Shown one piece after another: positions 7,926 to 61,748 of a stretch of DNA of 64,000 nt; the stretch's first letter is position 1; every line of letters starts with the position of its first letter. Below the pieces are notes generated by a model. The model had not been told where the DNA came from. It saw only the letters and a program-made list of their open reading frames with translations, and ran no database searches. The position numbers were made by a program, and so were the translations under genes. Source of the DNA: a virus; the UHGV virus genome UHGV-0134996. One strand, given 5' to 3'.

Positions 7926-8289
7926 ACAATCTACGTAACGTGTCGGCGACAGAAGATACAGATATCTCTCCTGTCGCAGCCCCTACGGTAAGGTCTGCCA
8001 GTTCAGGTGAATCAAATACCTGCACCCCGTTACGGCGTAGAAATAACAGCGCACTGTTTAGCGCGGTACGCTTATTGGCATCATTGAATATATGCCCTCT
8101 CGCTGTAGCCACCAGGTAGGTGGCGGAGACTTCGAAAAGGTCGGTGATCTCTTCGTAGGCAACTCTGGCCTGAACTCTCCCGATAATGGCCTCTGCCCTA
8201 CCCGGATCTGACATTCCCGGCAGGCCGCCGTAGCGGTTTATATTCGCATCATGAAGCGCAATAAGTTCTTCCGGTGATATATGCCTCAT
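7909..8289 (-). CDS. doc: Doc toxin (Fic-fold kinase) of phd-doc addiction module
   Basis: 126 aa; start overlaps phd stop (TAATG); sequence and size as P1 Doc. Confidence 0.92.
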
Positions 8290-8510
8290 TATCGGTTAAC
8301 CAGTTCCTTGTTGGTGGAGTCCAGGGTGTCAAACAGGGATGCAAATTCAGCATCCAGCGCCGCTTTTTTGTAGGCTTCGAAAGTAGCCTTGCTGACAATT
8401 ACTGCTGGCTCACGGCCTCTGCGGGTGATTTCAACCTCTTCCCCGGCTTCAACATTGTTGAGCACTTCAGAAAGGTTGCCGCGCGCGGTACGGAAGTTAA
8501 TGGATTGCAT
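8289..8510 (-). CDS. phd: Phd antitoxin
   Basis: 73 aa [39 protein letters not shown]... as P1 Phd. Confidence 0.92.
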
Positions 8511-51828: not shown

Positions 51829-52629
51829 TTAGCGCGTTGCCGCGACAGGTACCAGCACACCAGCATCAAGCAATCGCTTCATCAGCCACTGCTGACCTTT
51901 GCCGGTTATACGAGTCGTGAAAGAAATCCTGCTTCCATTGCTTGTATCGATCACGGTTTCTTTAAGGGTGAAATACCCACGGGATATGTATTCTTGTTTG
52001 GGGACGTTCCTGCGTTCACCGGTTGCGATCAGAATTCCGTTATCACGCAACCAGGTGAAGAGATAGTTTTGGCCCAGGCCGAGCACTTTGGCATAGTTGC
52101 CGATTAGAACCCCGCTGGCGGTAGCAACGCGTTCGGCGAATTCGACTTTAGGTGCATCCATCAGCATTTTTTGCTCCAGCCGTTGCTTTTGCTCTGCCAG
52201 GTCAGCAGCCAAACGGAGAGCTTCTGGGAGGCTCTTCGGAATAGCAGGTTGTAATCTTCCGGCTCGATAGTCGATAAATGTCTGGTTTACCTTCAGCCGA
52301 AACGCGGGAGAAATCCAGCCTGCGTACTCCACTGCGAGCAATTCATGGGCAAAAGTGCCGCCGCCACGGCCTTCGAACGAAACTATGCAATTCTGCATAG
52401 TTTCTTTTTCAAGCTCTTCGATGAGCTGTTTTGCTGACAGCGTTCTTAGCCATTGAGCTGGCGCTTTATGGGCACCGAGTCCGCTCGCTCTGTGTAGAGC
52501 ATTAAGGTTGTAACGGCCAGCGCGGTCGGTCGTAATTTCAACACCACAAATAACGGGCAGAGTGGTTGAAGGATCGACATTTTGATGAAGGTTTGATATA
52601 TTCATATCCGCATTGAATGTTTGTTGCAT
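51829..52629 (-). CDS. kilA: KilA (KilA-N plus KilA-C domains)
   Basis: 266 aa; C-terminal domain homologous to the Ant C-termini in this window; first gene after operator at 52700. Confidence 0.85.
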   Translation of the reverse strand: MQQTFNADMNISNLHQNVDPSTTLPVICGVEITTDRAGRYNLNALHRASGLGAHKAPAQWLRTLSAKQLIEELEKETMQNCIVSFEGRGGGTFAHELLAVEYAGWISPAFRLKVNQTFIDYRAGRLQPAIPKSLPEALRLAADLAEQKQRLEQKMLMDAPKVEFAERVATASGVLIGNYAKVLGLGQNYLFTWLRDNGILIATGERRNVPKQEYISRGYFTLKETVIDTSNGSRISFTTRITGKGQQWLMKRLLDAGVLVPVAATR

Positions 52630-53269: not shown

Positions 53270-54310
53270 TTAAGACAAGGACGCCACTGGTTTTAACAAG
53301 CCAGCATCAAGTAGCTTGCGAGTCAACCACTGCTGGCCTTTACCCGTTAATTGGGGCGTCAGCCGTATCTGGTAGCCATTTTCATCATCCAGCACCACTT
53401 CTTTCACCGTGAAATACCCGGCGTTGATGTACTGTTGGCGCGGTACGTTTTTGCGCGCACCAAAAGCCATGAGAATGCCGTTCTGGCGCAACCATGAGAA
53501 AAGGGCGTTTTGCTTAAGTCCAACGACCTTTGCAAAGTTCCCGATCAGGATTCCATTAGCCACTGATACCCGGTCGGCAAAATCGACTTTAGGGGCTGCG
53601 GCCACCAGCTGTTGTTCCAGCTGCATTTTCTGTTCTGCCAACTCGGCAGCCAGGCGTAGAGCTTCTGGTAATGTTTGGGGGATCGATGGGGCAGGGGAGT
53701 TTGCCTGCTGCAATTCTTCCAGTTTGTCGATCAGCGAACGGCGGACCGCTTTTGACTCGCGCGCGGCGACTCGCAGGGCTTGTTTGAAAGTCATGGTTAT
53801 GACAAGCATTGATGTTTTGTTCATTTTTTCCACTACACTTTTTGTGTAGTGCTCACCATCAAGCTCATCGAGTATTTTTTCGATGAATTTGTTGTTCCGA
53901 ACCTCTGGTTCCCCACATAACTTACGCGCTTCATTGACCATCTTTAACAGTGTCAGGCTGTCGATTGTGTCTCCGGTGTTGGAGATAACATGCACTGCTG
54001 GTGATGGCGTAGCTGAAGCAACAGGTGCTGGTTTTTCAACATTCAAATTATTACCGGTCATTCTGCGCGCCTCCTTTCTCATTTCTGCTGCCACTGTTGC
54101 GTAACGTAGACGTCCTTGTTCAATCAAATAATCCCTGATCTCGGCTATCAGTAGCCTGTTGATCACAGCCTTATCTGTTCGGGTATAAAAACGTCTGGTT
54201 ATCATGAAATAGTTGGCAATTGCGCCGGGGATCTCCCGTGTCGGCATACAGGTTGTATGCAAAGCGATCGCTTCGGCTATTTCATTACGGGTGACGAGAG
54301 GTGTTTTCAT
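53270..54310 (-). CDS. ant1: Ant1/Ant2 antirepressor (ImmI)
   Basis: 346 aa; start overlaps icd stop (ATGA); adjacent to kilA-repL as in P1 ImmI. Confidence 0.85.
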   Translation of the reverse strand: MKTPLVTRNEIAEAIALHTTCMPTREIPGAIANYFMITRRFYTRTDKAVINRLLIAEIRDYLIEQGRLRYATVAAEMRKEARRMTGNNLNVEKPAPVASATPSPAVHVISNTGDTIDSLTLLKMVNEARKLCGEPEVRNNKFIEKILDELDGEHYTKSVVEKMNKTSMLVITMTFKQALRVAARESKAVRRSLIDKLEELQQANSPAPSIPQTLPEALRLAAELAEQKMQLEQQLVAAAPKVDFADRVSVANGILIGNFAKVVGLKQNALFSWLRQNGILMAFGARKNVPRQQYINAGYFTVKEVVLDDENGYQIRLTPQLTGKGQQWLTRKLLDAGLLKPVASLS

Positions 54311-54528: not shown

Positions 54529-54842
54529 AGTTACGGCCTCACAATCAGGTTTAACAACCTGCTACCCGCTGCTAAACAGGTGGCAGGACGTGACGGGGTT
54601 AGCAGACTGGCGATTGTGAAACCAGCAGGCCGAAGCCTCCCCATCACGCCCCACCATAATTTGGGCGTAACGCGGTTTTACGGACACAAAAATACCGCAA
54701 TATCGGATATCTGCGGCTGTCCGCACAATCATTCAGGCTGCTAAACCCGGTCGCAGAATTTGCTACGACGGCGGAACTATAAGCCTGAACGATTAAAAGG
54801 TCAATATGATGCGAAAAGATAGCATTCGCGACTTAAAAATAC

Positions 54843-54928: not shown

Positions 54929-55603
54929 ATGAGTTATAAGGCAGGTGAGGTTATAATGAGAAAACTATTACTACCGTTATTATTTATGGCTGGGACTGTT
55001 AATGCAGCATCAAGCGTAAAGGAGATTTGTACCGATTATACGAAATACCTTGGGCACGTTTACGGCTTTGCTGTCAGTCAAGACGAATCCATGCGCAAGA
55101 AGTTACTGTCAGATATGAAACGCCTTAAACTTTCTGAAGCGATGGTGCAGCAAGAACTGTATAAAGTCGCAACCAACGAAAATGCTAAATATCAATATTC
55201 TCGCCTGTTAAATCCCGACGCAAACGAGATCAATCGAAGCTCTTTCGATTATATGGTAAAGGCATGCGAAACCGCTCCTGATTTTGCTATTCCTAGCTGG
55301 GGTGTGCTGGTGGCGAGCAATGCCGTTAATAAAGAAGACGTTGGAAGAAATGGCATTGATTCAATCAGAAACTCACCGGGAATGCGCCATCAAAACGTTC
55401 AGGGTACGCTTGAAGAACGGGCCAGGGGGCCGGGTACAAACTCCCCAATGGGAAACCTCTCCCCGGAGGAATTGCAAGAGTATAACCAACGGATGGAGCA
55501 GTATGAGAAAGCTGCACGCGAAAAAATGGAACAACAAAAAAACGGATCTCTTAATACTTTCCAGCAAGGTTTAAAAGCGCTTAATTTACCCTATGAATGG
55601 TGA
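54929..55603 (+). CDS. secreted protein with Sit-like motif (superinfection-exclusion candidate)
   Basis: Signal peptide MRKLLLPLLFMAGTVNA; shares GMR..VQGTLEERARG.GT motif with Sit C-terminal region. Confidence 0.55.
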   Translation: MSYKAGEVIMRKLLLPLLFMAGTVNAASSVKEICTDYTKYLGHVYGFAVSQDESMRKKLLSDMKRLKLSEAMVQQELYKVATNENAKYQYSRLLNPDANEINRSSFDYMVKACETAPDFAIPSWGVLVASNAVNKEDVGRNGIDSIRNSPGMRHQNVQGTLEERARGPGTNSPMGNLSPEELQEYNQRMEQYEKAAREKMEQQKNGSLNTFQQGLKALNLPYEW

Positions 55604-55654: not shown

Positions 55655-56131
55655 ATGCGCATCAAACGATTTTTACTAGTTATTGCTTTGCTTACTCCGT
55701 TTTCATCAATGGCAAATGTAAGCAAATGGTCAACCGGCGAGACTCATGGTGTTCGTTCTTATGCTGTTTCCAGCAAAGATAATTATACGCTTACATTTGA
55801 GTGCGATGTTGGATTTAATAATACGGATCCCAATCAAGTAGGAACACGACTACTCACTCTCATGAAAACAGAACCTGGCGGTGAGTCATTTGAGGCTAAA
55901 AAAGAACAAATAACGCTGAAAGTTGGTGATGATGAATATCCTATCAGTTCTATCGGTTCCTCTGTGGGTGATAGTTACTGGTATGGTTTTTGGTCAGATA
56001 CCCCTGATATGGAAGTTAAAACATTCGATGCATACGTAGACGGAAAAAAAATCGCAACATTTACGCTACGTAAGGCCGCAGAGCTTTTCAACGCGGCACC
56101 TGAAGATGGCTGCCTGAAGCGCGCAAAATGA
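55655..56131 (+). CDS. secreted/periplasmic protein
   Basis: 158 aa with signal peptide MRIKRFLLVIALLTPFSSMA. Confidence 0.55.
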   Translation: MRIKRFLLVIALLTPFSSMANVSKWSTGETHGVRSYAVSSKDNYTLTFECDVGFNNTDPNQVGTRLLTLMKTEPGGESFEAKKEQITLKVGDDEYPISSIGSSVGDSYWYGFWSDTPDMEVKTFDAYVDGKKIATFTLRKAAELFNAAPEDGCLKRAK

Positions 56132-56165
56132 CCTGTCACAAATGACTACTCGTAGAATCGGTTAA

Positions 56166-56756
<591 letters not shown>

Positions 56757-58355: not shown

Positions 58356-61300
58356 ATGGAAAGAAAAAACGCCAACATTGACGATGTGATAAGGACGGTT
58401 GAAACCGCCAGCGCAAAAGAGCTGGAAGAGCTTGCAGGTATTCGGGAAGCCGTTGAAGATTTGAAAGGGGGGCGAGTTGCTACAGTTGATCCTGTCTCTC
58501 GCAGTGTGTCGGCATTAAATCGCACAATCGAAAATTCCCGGCCAGACTTTGTGGCCAATGCGCCATCAGTGGACCCTATTGTTGAGGCAATGAAACGGCT
58601 TAATTTAGGGGACGTTTCTCGTGTAGTTCAGGAGGATGTTGCTCTACAGGAACCGCAGGCCAAATCAACTACGCGAAAGGGTAAAAAACGACGCAAGAAG
58701 GCTATAACAGAAGATGTAAAGGCGCAACGGACCGAAGCAGCCGAACACGCTCGCGAAATGTTCGGTCAAAAAGGCGGTGCGCAAAAAAGCCAAAACCAAC
58801 GCGATGCGCGTGGTCGTTTTATTGGAAAGTCAGGGAGTAAGGCCGCAGCGGAAGATGCCCGTGCTGAACGTGCTGAAAAGGCTAGGCGCAAAGAGGATGA
58901 TGAGCGTCTAAATGCTGAATCAGGTTTATTAAAAAAACTGTCAAAAGTAGCTGAAGGCATAGGTAACCCTTCAGAGACTCGTGCCGTCGATGCGTTAGGT
59001 TATGCCGTTGCTGGTCCATTGTGGGCAGCAGGGAAGGAGCTTGGCGGGATATCAAAAGAAGTTGGTGGATCGCTTAATGGTGCCAGAAAGTCTATTGCCG
59101 ATGTGATTCGTGGCAATGACGATAACAGCCGTAGAAAAGGTTTTTTTAGGCGTAAATCGCAAAATAGTGCCGATGTCGTTCAGGTTAACACCCAAAAACG
59201 GACGGTTCAGGAACTTCAGGAGCAGACCAGCGAAATTAAAGAGGGCAATGACAAGATTCTCCGCGCCCTTGATCAGATAGCCAAAAACACCGGTAAAAAG
59301 AAGGGCGGCTTGCTGTCCAAACTATTTAGCCTGTTAGGGAAGGGGGCCGGTGGCGTCGCGTCGTTGTTAATGGGGCGTGGCATGCTGAAAAAAGCTGGAG
59401 CACTCGCTTTTGGCGCTCTGGGGGCAAAGAAACTTGTAGGAATGCTACGCGGTGGTGGCAAGAAGACTCTCGCTCATGAAGGCGGAGATTTGGCTGCCCG
59501 GGCAGCAGGTAAACTTGGATTAAAGGCAGTTGGTAAAGGGGCGTTACGCGCAATTCCCCTAGTCGGCACAGTGGCTGGAGGTATTTATGATGCGGTAACC
59601 GGTTGGAATGATACAGAAGCGCAACGTCGAGCGTTTGGGCTTAAATCAGGACAAGATCCATCATTCCAGCAAAAAGCCGCTTATACGTTAGCCAATGTTC
59701 TTGATTTGGGGGGACTGGTATCTGGTATTAGCAGCGCTATTGGTGATGTTCTCAAATCACTTGGATTTGAGGATATCGGCAATATGTTGCAATCATTTTC
59801 GACGGAAAGTATTGCCCAGGCCATTGATAGCGGGGTTACCAACTTAGAAACATATATTTCTAACCTTGGCGACACCATTTCTACCAAGTTCGATGATTAC
59901 ACAGCAAAGATTGGTGATGCTGTTTCAGCATGGTTTAGCGATACATCTAATAAGTTGCTTGAAAAGCTGGATGCCATAAAAGACTTCTTTACTGTCGATA
60001 ACCTGAAACAGGTTTTCAGTGATGCAATTGATAGTGCAATTGACTTCATTAAGAACCCAGGGAAACACATTAAAGAGGCGGCTGGTAATATTTGGGATGG
60101 GGTTAAAAATTTACCCGGTAAAGCATTAGATGCAGCGGTTGATGCCGTTAAAAATACCCCTGCGGCAATGATTGTATCAAAAATACCCAATCCGATCGGC
60201 GAGGCTAATGCAAAAGAAATCACTCCAGAGTTAAAAGCTCCGGTTAATAGCCACCAGGAGACATCTGATTCTAAAACTGAATCCGATGCTAAACAGACTA
60301 ATATTGCTACCCGCGTGATAAATGCGGCACTGGACACGGCGAAAGATAGCAATAAAACAGTTAAAGAAACTGCCAATCAGATTATCAATGCAAATGCCGT
60401 AGAAACGGGCAATAGCGCGGTGCGGAAAATTGATTCAGCTATTGGACAAAATAGCTCGTCATCATCGTCGCGTAATACCACCGGCACTGGGAATGACATT
60501 CAGAAAGCTGCTGATACCTACAATAATGGCAACTTAGATGTAAAAGTCGGAAGCCTTGGCGCTGAAGGTAAGGCAAATCTCGATAAGTTAGCTCCGTATT
60601 TTGCTGAACTAGAGAATAAATATGGTCTTCCTGAAGGCACTCTTTACGCGATTGCTGCAACTGAATCTGGTGGTAATCCATACGCAAAATCCCAAACTGG
60701 TGCTCTAGGAATGTTTCAGTTCACGGGCATTGCTCGTGAAGAGACTGGCTTAGCTGAAGGTGAATCGTTTGATCCTGTGAAATCGGCAGAAGCTGCGGCT
60801 CTTCTCATGAGCAAGTATCTGAAGCAAGCCAATGGAGACTTAAACGAGGCCATCACTGCATATAACGCTGGGTTTGGCACTATTAATAAGTGGAAAAAAG
60901 GCACCGGTGACTTATCGAAGGAAAACCGTGAGTACGCGATCAAGGTCAATACTCATCGTGCTCGCTATTTAGGTGGTGAAATCTATACACCTGGGGCAGG
61001 AGCACAGGGTGGGGCGCAATATGGAGTGAGGGGACAACTGCCTGATAACGCCGTTATCGATCAGTCTACTGGTCTGGCGTTTACCCCTGGTGATAGCCCG
61101 TTTGAGAAAGGCGGTCTGGTAGACAAAATCGGCAATGCTGTTGGCGTTAACGATCTGGTCAACAAATTCATGAATGGCCGGGGTATGCGTCGGGAAGTCG
61201 TTCAGGGAACGCTCGAAGAACGTGCACGAGGGAAGGGGACCGCAACAGCAGCTGGCAATGTGTATGTTGATACTCCGATGCCAGTTGAAGAGGCGCGTCC

Positions 61301-61748
61301 GGTGGCCAGCAACTCAAGTTACTTTGACCAACTCGGCGCACAAATGGGGATTGATGGACTATTCGATAAACTCCGCAACTCGCCGGGGATGCGGAAAAAT
61401 AATGCGCCTGAACCAGCCTCCACGTCCCAGGTGACGACTGCCGCCAACGATTTGCAGCAACCAACCGGTCGTATGCAGATAGACGGGCAGGTTATTAGTG
61501 ACCTTGGCGGTTCCGGTGCCAAGCCGACAATGCAGTTGGCTGATAATACCGTTTCACTTGATGGTGAAACGAAGCGGCTGTTTGCGCAGATGACCTCATT
61601 GCTTGCCAGGATTGAAGAGCACACCAAAGACTCGGCGAAAGGCCAGGGAACTGTCGTAAAGGTCAGCACGCCTCAGCCGGGCGTTATGCGCACGGTACCA
61701 CTGTCAATTGATGATCCGTTGATGAATGACTACGCGAGAGTTGATTGA
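58356..61748 (+). CDS. sit: Sit, tape-measure/injection protein with lytic transglycosylase (SLT) domain
   Basis: 1130 aa; SLT motif AIAATESGGNPYAKSQTGALGMFQF; long helical/Gly-rich regions. Confidence 0.85.
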   Translation: MERKNANIDDVIRTVETASAKELEELAGIREAVEDLKGGRVATVDPVSRSVSALNRTIENSRPDFVANAPSVDPIVEAMKRLNLGDVSRVVQEDVALQEPQAKSTTRKGKKRRKKAITEDVKAQRTEAAEHAREMFGQKGGAQKSQNQRDARGRFIGKSGSKAAAEDARAERAEKARRKEDDERLNAESGLLKKLSKVAEGIGNPSETRAVDALGYAVAGPLWAAGKELGGISKEVGGSLNGARKSIADVIRGNDDNSRRKGFFRRKSQNSADVVQVNTQKRTVQELQEQTSEIKEGNDKILRALDQIAKNTGKKKGGLLSKLFSLLGKGAGGVASLLMGRGMLKKAGALAFGALGAKKLVGMLRGGGKKTLAHEGGDLAARAAGKLGLKAVGKGALRAIPLVGTVAGGIYDAVTGWNDTEAQRRAFGLKSGQDPSFQQKAAYTLANVLDLGGLVSGISSAIGDVLKSLGFEDIGNMLQSFSTESIAQAIDSGVTNLETYISNLGDTISTKFDDYTAKIGDAVSAWFSDTSNKLLEKLDAIKDFFTVDNLKQVFSDAIDSAIDFIKNPGKHIKEAAGNIWDGVKNLPGKALDAAVDAVKNTPAAMIVSKIPNPIGEANAKEITPELKAPVNSHQETSDSKTESDAKQTNIATRVINAALDTAKDSNKTVKETANQIINANAVETGNSAVRKIDSAIGQNSSSSSSRNTTGTGNDIQKAADTYNNGNLDVKVGSLGAEGKANLDKLAPYFAELENKYGLPEGTLYAIAATESGGNPYAKSQTGALGMFQFTGIAREETGLAEGESFDPVKSAEAAALLMSKYLKQANGDLNEAITAYNAGFGTINKWKKGTGDLSKENREYAIKVNTHRARYLGGEIYTPGAGAQGGAQYGVRGQLPDNAVIDQSTGLAFTPGDSPFEKGGLVDKIGNAVGVNDLVNKFMNGRGMRREVVQGTLEERARGKGTATAAGNVYVDTPMPVEEARPVASNSSYFDQLGAQMGIDGLFDKLRNSPGMRKNNAPEPASTSQVTTAANDLQQPTGRMQIDGQVISDLGGSGAKPTMQLADNTVSLDGETKRLFAQMTSLLARIEEHTKDSAKGQGTVVKVSTPQPGVMRTVPLSIDDPLMNDYARVD

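Follow-up and report, generated by a model that had tools for sequence, protein, structure and literature searches.

Why does a small secreted protein, encoded beside the immunity region of a P1-like phage, carry a stretch of sequence that also occurs in the phage's own tape-measure protein, Sit? The question concerns a 64-kb stretch of viral DNA, called the window here, whose source is a P1-like phage (Punavirus) and which was 99.9% identical to Escherichia phage vB_EcoM-Ro157c2YLVW over the 1.5-kb stretch queried. An earlier note on this DNA had described the product of an ORF at 54929-55603 as a secreted protein with a motif copied from Sit, and had proposed that it acts in a Sim-like superinfection exclusion by competing with incoming Sit. 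The answer bears on how the P1 tape-measure protein crosses the periplasm and on how the classic sim locus excludes phages.

A full-length SimA protein at the sim locus

The ORF lay between immI and the late tail operon pmgC-tub-pmgB-sit. The immI region of the window consisted of the C4 antisense RNA, its a1b1 target, and the minus-strand genes icd and ant, and the C4 and a1b1 elements were found directly beside the gene, in agreement with the earlier description of it as a neighbor of the immunity region (Table 1). In P1, the slot between c4/icd/ant and LPsit holds simA-simB-simC, the 'superimmunity' genes, and the window gene occupied the position of P1 simA between immI (c4/icd/ant) and pmgC. 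LPsit preceded the first gene of the tail operon, and from ~56138 on the DNA was identical to that of P1. Because LPsit forms the right edge of the variable sim cassette, both secreted-protein genes of the window lie outside the late tail operon. In most lineages, the second of these proteins goes together with the 215-aa SimA. A scan of the SimA locus for promoters and terminators found sites that were no more numerous or stronger than in shuffled sequence. On the minus strand, 51829-52629 and 53270-54310 were paralogous KilA-C/Ant-type antirepressor genes, equivalents of kilA and ant1/2, with a long C-terminal similarity as in P1, which is ordinary for an immI region.

Table 1. Positions of sim- and sit-region features in the window
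Feature	Position	Strand	Basis
C4 antisense RNA, immI	54576-54661	-	Rfam RF01695, 69.6 bits
a1b1 target of C4 RNA	54730-54782
Full-length SimA-family secreted protein	54956-55603	+	215 aa from M10; phrog_3933, P1 SimA match, RefSeq start
Signal peptide MRKLLLPLLFMAGTVNA of the signal peptidase I type, lipobox absent	54956-55006	+	Read from sequence
All-helical N-terminal domain, conserved Cys pair C25 and C104 (M10 numbering)	55013-55345	+
Sit-like linear motif GIDSIRNSPGMRHQNVQGTLEERARGPGTNSP, predicted disordered tail	55352-55447	+	BLASTP, profile cross-matches, pLDDT
Second secreted protein of cassette, 158 aa, beta-sandwich	55655-56131	+	phrog_3429 / PF27224
Late promoter LPsit region	56138-56189	+	Alignment with P1, LPsit annotation of P1
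Sit, tape-measure/injection transglycosylase, 1130 aa, SLT domain aa 748-857	58356-61748	+	Pfam SLT E 4.6e-27, phrog_2533, P1 annotation
Sit motif 1, aa 927-969, including FMNGRGMRREVVQGTLEERARGKGT and LVNKFMNGRGMRREVVQGTLEERARGKGT	61134-61262	+	BLASTP, motif HMM
Sit motif 2, aa 998-1016, GIDGLFDKLRNSPGMRKNN, short second copy	61347-61403	+	BLASTP, motif HMM

The longest reading, from 54929, gives an ORF of 224 aa, but the true start is probably the ATG of M10, because a Shine-Dalgarno sequence, AGGTGAGG, lies 7 nt upstream of it, most homologues begin there, and the RefSeq CDS in a 99.9%-identical phage starts at the equivalent codon. The residues that follow form a signal peptide, MRKLLLPLLFMAGTVNA, with a charged n-region, a hydrophobic core of mean Kyte-Doolittle value 2.25, and a VNA cleavage site before Ala-Ser, and this region was conserved among homologues as ANA/AS or AHA/SG (slash at the cleavage site). 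The signal peptide that the earlier note mentioned is thus of the Sec type, judged from these sequence features alone. A lipobox (L-x-x-C) was looked for in the signal peptide and was absent, the first cysteine being eight residues past the predicted cleavage site, and, as read from the model and the sequence, the mature protein appeared to contain only amphipathic helices and a polar tail, with no transmembrane segment. The AlphaFold2 model had pLDDT values of 71-86 in the N-terminal domain and below 50 at residues 134-168, which include the motif, and so places the motif on a flexible, presumably disordered, tail behind a helical domain.

Across its full length, the protein matched phrog_3933 (E 1.1e-136, residues 10-224 against profile positions 1-213 of 213), and database homologues carry the name 'simA domain protein'. 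It had no PADLOC or NCBIfam match, no fold or family was found that would explain its N-terminal domain, and none of the known exclusion or inhibitor proteins matched it in fold. The only Pfam match was to PTPlike_phytase (residues 34-118 of the 224-aa ORF; E 8e-6) and fell below threshold, at 26.4 bits against a cut-off of 27. Precomputed annotations list this Pfam family for many homologues as well, and we regard the match as probably a spurious helical one, albeit consistent across the homologues. An ORF in the +1 frame (55284-55574) overlapped the gene, and several 205-aa variants (P0002, P0004, P0007, P0008, and P0016) shifted into the +1 frame at or near the motif. These variants were mostly single-member clusters from read-archive assemblies, and their frameshifts probably arose at G/C runs through errors in sequencing or assembly.

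Alignment with P1 identified the product of the ORF as P1 SimA in its full-length form. The two proteins share a locus, upstream region, PHROG, signal peptide, and first ~45 residues, with identity of the last two, but P1 SimA is a 52-aa stump, consisting of the signal peptide and ~25 residues, that stops short of the helical domain and the motif, whereas the window protein has the entire 215 aa. The DNA was identical to P1 from upstream of the start to ~55065 and then diverged; a recombination junction was apparent at ~55065-55095 (window 54929-55095 compared with positions 8230-8431 of the P1 locus, L001). The TAA stop of P1 simA aligned with a GAA codon in the window, and the ATG of P1 simB aligned with the codon for M55. 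Therefore, P1 simA is a remnant, in which the rest of the gene and its neighbor have been replaced by simB-simC. In PLSDB, 267 plasmids matched the protein, ~115-120 of them over most of its length and the others as P1-type stumps. The annotation of P1 'simA' should thus be corrected to that of a remnant of a larger gene, which is intact in ~40-45% of the P1-like plasmids that have simA-related sequence.

Among ~70 P1-like loci that we fetched, the 47 with both genes complete were classified by layout, and three layouts recurred. The first contained the 215-aa SimA and 158-aa secreted protein, as in the window; the second, a 163-aa SimA stopping just past the motif, a 168-aa protein, and an SH3-domain protein; and the third, the P1-type simA stump with simB/simC. 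In the second layout (for example locus L006, 8001-10147, and loci L029-L041), the 163-aa SimA ended in ERARGPGVAP, the SH3-domain protein had 357-394 aa, and the cassette breakpoint fell directly past the Sit-like motif. Prior studies describe the sim region as a recombination hot spot (PMC9603915) and report that, between two D6-like prophages that are close relatives, the main differences lie near simB and in sit (PMC6799933). Truncation of simA in P1, followed there by simB/simC, suggests that these are functionally interchangeable cassettes. SimB and SimC had no similarity to the ORF or to Sit, and the motif was absent from both; the best BLASTP E-value between the ORF and SimC was 27, and SimC belongs to a different PHROG, phrog_14355. 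We therefore discarded SimB and SimC as relatives of either protein. The description of the window protein as Sim-like holds for its location at the P1 sim locus and fails for homology, as SimC is unrelated and has no Sit-like motif.

The secreted protein shares a motif with Sit

A P1 study describes Sit as carrying a transglycosylase needed for wall crossing (PMC9024508). BLASTP aligned ORF residues 131-177 with Sit residues 927-969 (23 of 47 identical, E 7e-9), and a second HSP matched the ORF with Sit residues 1003-1041, at motif 2 (E 0.006). The Smith-Waterman score was 101, compared to 40 ± 5.3 for 300 shuffles (z = 11.4). PHROG profiles matched in both directions, the ORF to the Sit family (phrog_2533, E 1.3e-7) and Sit to the ORF family (phrog_3933, E 7.8e-6). 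In a six-frame translation of the window, a motif HMM matched only the secreted ORF and Sit. The shared segment contained 15 residue types and 3.7 bits, which rules out low complexity as the source of the similarity. All of the peptides that the earlier note had quoted from the two proteins were present, and the similarity that it noticed is a significant one of ~45 aa; the two computational checks that it proposed, a pairwise alignment and a structure prediction, gave the values above and a tail of low pLDDT behind a folded helical domain, respectively. We found no mention of the SimA/Sit similarity in the published literature covered, which did not extend to the P1 genome paper (Lobocka et al., 2004).

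The similarity is confined to the region of the motif, GIDSIRNSPGMRHQNVQGTLEERARGPGTNSP, which corresponds to residues 142-173 of the 224-aa ORF. Only ORF residues 138-180 matched phrog_2533, at profile positions 929-972. Members of the Sit family have a long helical ruler, a hydrolase domain, and a C-terminal end of the form PQP..VPLSIDDPLM; the secreted protein falls outside this family, having 215 aa, no SLT domain, and a match to the motif segment only.

The motif is conserved in both families

In SimA-like proteins, the core [NS]-[AS]-[PR]-G-M-R-[HQ]-Q was nearly invariant among E. coli, Salmonella, Klebsiella, Cronobacter, and Pantoea. The commonest variant was RNAPGMRHQ, and the window has RNSPGMRHQ. 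Asn139, Gly142, Met143, Arg144, and Gln146 were the only invariant positions of the C-terminal half in one alignment (A5), and Asn139, Met143, and Gln146 were conserved at 90% or more in another (A3). A helical N-terminal domain and two conserved cysteines were common to all SimA-like proteins, down to 38% identity in a Pantoea plasmid. The core was often extended by V-Q-G-T-L-x-x-R-A-x-G. Behind the core, at least three unrelated tail modules have been swapped: the Sit-like VQGTLEERARG extension, one or two Cys-loop modules, and a helical tail.

The placement of the SimA motif exactly at the junction of the conserved domain and these exchangeable tails, together with the flexible linkers around the Sit motif, could reflect a common processing site, at which a periplasmic or phage protease matures both proteins and frees the variable C-terminal module. 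Many tape-measure proteins are trimmed. We consider such a site quite improbable here: the 163-aa form ends 10-20 residues past the motif and would have nothing to release, the 11-residue VQGTLEERARG extension is longer than a typical cleavage site, and the accessible part of the P1 virion proteomics study reports no such processing of Sit (PMC9024508).

All SimA homologues with informative genomic context (about two-thirds of the matches listed) were on contigs of ~90 kb, the size of P1-type elements, and those without such context were short assembly fragments. A sit gene was present in every fetched SimA locus that was long enough to check. When genome and metagenome contigs were scanned for further SimA lineages, nothing was gained beyond the Pantoea element and E. 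coli types, and a motif-profile search of a set of 5.8 billion proteins returned only three simA fragments. Scans of viral contigs with NAxGMRHQ and AEGMRHQ DNA patterns found SimA-like and Sit-like genes, the other hits being chance matches in short non-coding frames, and revealed no independent family of small secreted motif carriers.

Searching 1.84 billion representative proteins by phmmer with the post-SLT region of Sit returned only 16 clusters. The distant Sit-like proteins (29-38% identity in the C-terminal region) all had one or two copies of the motif, with the pattern G, one or two residues, and then [DE].[LIV].xA[EP]G[ML]RHQ, and one of them contained RNAPGMRHQ, the same nine residues as the commonest SimA variant. 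An alignment of Sit-like proteins showed the motif as an island of conservation. The Ala/Pro/Gly/Ser/Thr linker around it is rich in indels and spans from the hydrolase domain to the conserved C-terminal ~90 residues. In two distant Sit-like proteins with the motif, the hydrolase domain seems, on reading the sequence, to be of a type other than SLT, in which case the motif would occur independently of the SLT fold. We also considered the motif as an autoinhibitory peptide specific for SLT, which is unlikely because it is kept beside this apparently different hydrolase, a difference judged by eye.

Among 38 distinct Sit proteins of the E. coli type, motif 1 was in a stretch that ranked among the least variable (diversity 0.00-0.01) and came directly behind the most variable one. 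That variable stretch, at ~60390-61050 (Sit residues 680-900, the SLT domain and its flanks), had by far the highest pairwise diversity, ~0.25-0.36, which looks like mosaic alleles of the hydrolase domain; the C-terminal 100 aa, like the motif-1 region, were almost invariant in the same set. At 61560-61745, the end of Sit, PQP....(V/I)PL.(I/V).DP(L/A)M, and the preceding D(L/Y)(S/G)(G/A)S..KP were kept in all distant Sit-like proteins, and this C-terminus is likely to be an anchoring element distinct from the shared motif.

Selection acts on the peptide in both genes

We defined a short linear motif as a conserved island that has a disordered or indel-rich context in both proteins and is maintained by selection. 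The shared segment has these features: a pLDDT below 50 in the SimA tail, an island in the Sit linker, an invariant core, and synonymous divergence. The last of these was evident at the DNA level, as identical residues of SimA and its cognate Sit were encoded by different codons at 10 of 17, 11 of 17, 12 of 18, and 6 of 10 positions in four lineages, and the window itself gave 10 of 17. These differing codons indicate that the similarity is old and has been kept by peptide-level selection in both genes. They rule out a recent duplication or gene conversion, and thus the part of the earlier note that called the motif copied from Sit, if a recent copy was meant.

The same results bear on whether the motif might be a functionless relic, a sit fragment captured by a neighboring gene through illegitimate recombination. 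The two genes are usually ~6 kb apart on the same strand, and the hot-spot character of the sim region noted above would allow such a capture. In a relic, however, one would not expect the motif core to be the best-conserved part of the family's C-terminal half at 38% overall identity, the residues to be kept at saturated synonymous sites, or the motif to be retained where the gene has been relocated, as in Pantoea. The codon comparison and conservation of the core largely refute this possibility, which we regard as highly improbable.

Several observations point to co-variation of SimA with the Sit of the same element. First, in Pantoea, SimA NAPGMRHQAVKGSMAERARG corresponds to Sit NAPGMRHQVATGSMADRAYG, with KGSMAERARG of SimA paired with TGSMADRAYG of Sit, and both proteins have GSMA where other lineages have GTLE (GTLEE in E. 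coli). The two Pantoea genes are more than 10 kb apart, and most other pairs are ~6 kb apart on the same strand. Second, Salmonella SimA has NAPGMRHQ and its Sit has SAPGMRHQ, and in S. arizonae both proteins end in G.GVS. Third, Sit motif 2 occurs as two alleles, RNSPGMRK and INARGMRS, that are associated with the SimA motif type: in E. coli, SimA N[AS]PGMR was found with Sit motif-2 N[AS]PGMR in 30 of 33 loci, and the distribution of 30/3 versus 2/7 gave a Fisher p of 1.4e-4, a value inflated by linkage and clonality of the loci, which are not independent samples. Finally, cognate similarity exceeded non-cognate similarity in all but 960 of 40320 permutations (p ~0.02, eight lineages), a mildly significant result. 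SimA from Cronobacter and Klebsiella shared the core only, with 1 of 25 residues outside the GMR anchor identical to their own Sit. Taken together, the statistics are weak and the co-variation is suggestive.

The Pantoea element (L143, 10001-11452; Candidatus Pantoea alvi PSNIH6, a 94.4-kb contig) is a divergent P1-like element in which the SimA-like gene does not adjoin sit. This gene is near large ORFs, called methyltransferase-like and DnaB-like solely for their size and position. After it come genes for a 123-aa secreted protein and for a 161-aa product resembling a membrane protein.

These patterns also affect two other explanations. One is that the motif is a shared docking module for the envelope (peptidoglycan or a periplasmic or inner-membrane host protein), which Sit uses at entry and which has no role in exclusion, the secreted protein serving the lysogen in another way, such as envelope remodeling or resistance to unrelated phages or colicins. 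Conservation of the motif in both families across genera and the cell-wall hydrolase domain that adjoins it in Sit agree with this proposal, as do the variable C-terminal modules of SimA, whose Cys-loop repeats and other forms resemble exchangeable effector or binding parts, and the cassette partners, which vary by lineage (the 158-aa beta-sandwich, or the 168-aa protein and the SH3-domain protein). It is nonetheless somewhat unlikely, because a family found only in P1-type elements, with Sit in every checkable fetched locus, argues for a Sit-linked role, because lineage-specific matches to the cognate Sit would be unexpected for a generic host ligand, and because the gene is at a known exclusion locus.

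The other, a mechanistic variant of exclusion, is that the secreted protein traps incoming Sit directly and jams the ejected tape-measure protein, either by homotypic pairing of the similar segments or by recognition of the Sit motif by the helical domain, for which the tethered copy in the same protein would serve as a lid. That the resemblance to the cognate Sit persists even in the unlinked Pantoea pair would be natural if the segments must pair, and the VQGTLEERA part of the motif extension was predicted by AlphaFold as a short helix. However, about half of the lineages have only the GMRxQ core and no helical extension, and AlphaFold gave no confident intramolecular docking of the motif, with its pLDDT below 50. 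We view a direct trap as unlikely.

A proposed model for exclusion by motif mimicry

Our preferred explanation, which we put forward tentatively, is that the secreted protein mimics, in the periplasm, a linear motif of the tape-measure protein, causes superinfection exclusion by competition, and represents an alternative sim cassette. By analogy with other tailed phages, the C-terminal part of Sit is expected to leave the tail first and to enter the periplasm of the infected cell. We infer that the secreted protein is made from the prophage and resides in the periplasm, where its helical domain would be disulfide-bonded and the flexible tail behind that domain would display the Sit motif. This resident copy could compete for the periplasmic ligand of the Sit motif, which might be a protein of the host envelope or a further protein ejected by the phage. 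Alternatively, the resident protein could co-associate with incoming Sit. By either route, genome delivery by superinfecting P1-like phages would be aborted, and the cassette would functionally replace SimB/SimC of P1.

In agreement with this model, the gene lies at the sim locus, its product has an export signal, the family is confined to P1-like elements that carry Sit, and SimB/SimC take its place in P1. The similarity to Sit, which is solid, spans genera, and is under purifying selection, is what a competitive mimic would need. Exclusion at the sim locus does not require mimicry, as SimC is unrelated and has no motif. A broader proposal, that SimA-like proteins as a family are dedicated periplasmic mimics of a docking motif in the tape-measure protein and co-evolve with the Sit of their own phage, is possible, but we hold it with less confidence.

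If that proposal is correct, these proteins would form the first tailed-phage exclusion system to copy a linear motif of an ejected tape-measure protein, and the G-M-R-H-Q island of Sit would mark where Sit contacts a partner that P1 requires to deliver its genome through the periplasm. The shared motif provides a precise handle: ~10 residues to mutate, a bait peptide, and predicted map positions for escape mutants. In Enterobacteriaceae, P1-like plasmids commonly carry resistance genes, and the spectrum of exclusion affects which phage-plasmids co-exist.

Comparison with known systems

The closest counterpart by position is P1 SimC, which occupies the same genomic slot and is exported like the window protein, but has no sequence similarity to it or to Sit. 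In work from 1989 by Kliem and Dreiseikelmann and from 1990 by Maillou and Dreiseikelmann, Sim (SimC) is reported to be processed, exported, and able to block P1 infection after adsorption. The sim phenotype of P1 was seen with multicopy clones. SimC and the window protein presumably act at the same stage, DNA entry. The P1 record annotates SimC as the superimmunity protein, and SimC is non-essential for plaque formation (PMC10695390).

Several prophage-encoded envelope proteins block the step that depends on tape-measure or ejection proteins, and escape mutations map to those proteins. Exclusion by HK97 gp15 reportedly acts on tape-measure-dependent injection, in studies by Cumby et al. from 2012 and 2015. 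TP-J34 Ltp also targets tape-measure-dependent injection (PMC3952083), P22 SieA acts on ejection proteins (PMC10461980), and the SNIPE nuclease belongs to an exclusion system that targets tape-measure or ejection proteins (PMC13190303). HK97 gp15, Ltp, and SieA are inner-membrane proteins or lipoproteins, whereas the window protein is predicted to be soluble and periplasmic and carries the motif of its target. HK97 gp15, P22 SieA, and T4 Imm have transmembrane segments, of which the mature window protein is predicted to have none, and Ltp-type lipoproteins have a lipobox, in contrast to the VNA/AS end of the window signal peptide. To our knowledge, none of gp15, Ltp, SieA, or SNIPE has been reported to copy its target, nor has a sequence resemblance to the target been described for gp15, Ltp, or SieA.

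T4 Sp inhibits the tail lysozyme gp5, and Ivy, MliC, and PliC are periplasmic inhibitors of lysozymes or lytic transglycosylases. Like these proteins, which neutralize a virion-borne or exogenous cell-wall hydrolase, the window protein is connected with such an enzyme, in that Sit has a hydrolase beside the motif, but none of them matches the window protein in fold or sequence, and the motif is probably not an SLT-specific inhibitor peptide, given its occurrence in the two distant Sit-like proteins discussed above.

The closest mechanistic analogy is found in filamentous phages, where, as Boeke, Model, and Zinder are said to have described in 1982, periplasmic domains of pIII occupy TolA and thereby exclude further phages. 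In both cases, a resident periplasmic copy of part of an entry protein would pre-occupy the entry pathway. In the Ff phages, this copy is the entry protein itself, made during infection, whereas in the P1-like phage it would be the product of a separate gene that shares only a motif of ~30-45 aa with the tape-measure protein of a tailed phage.
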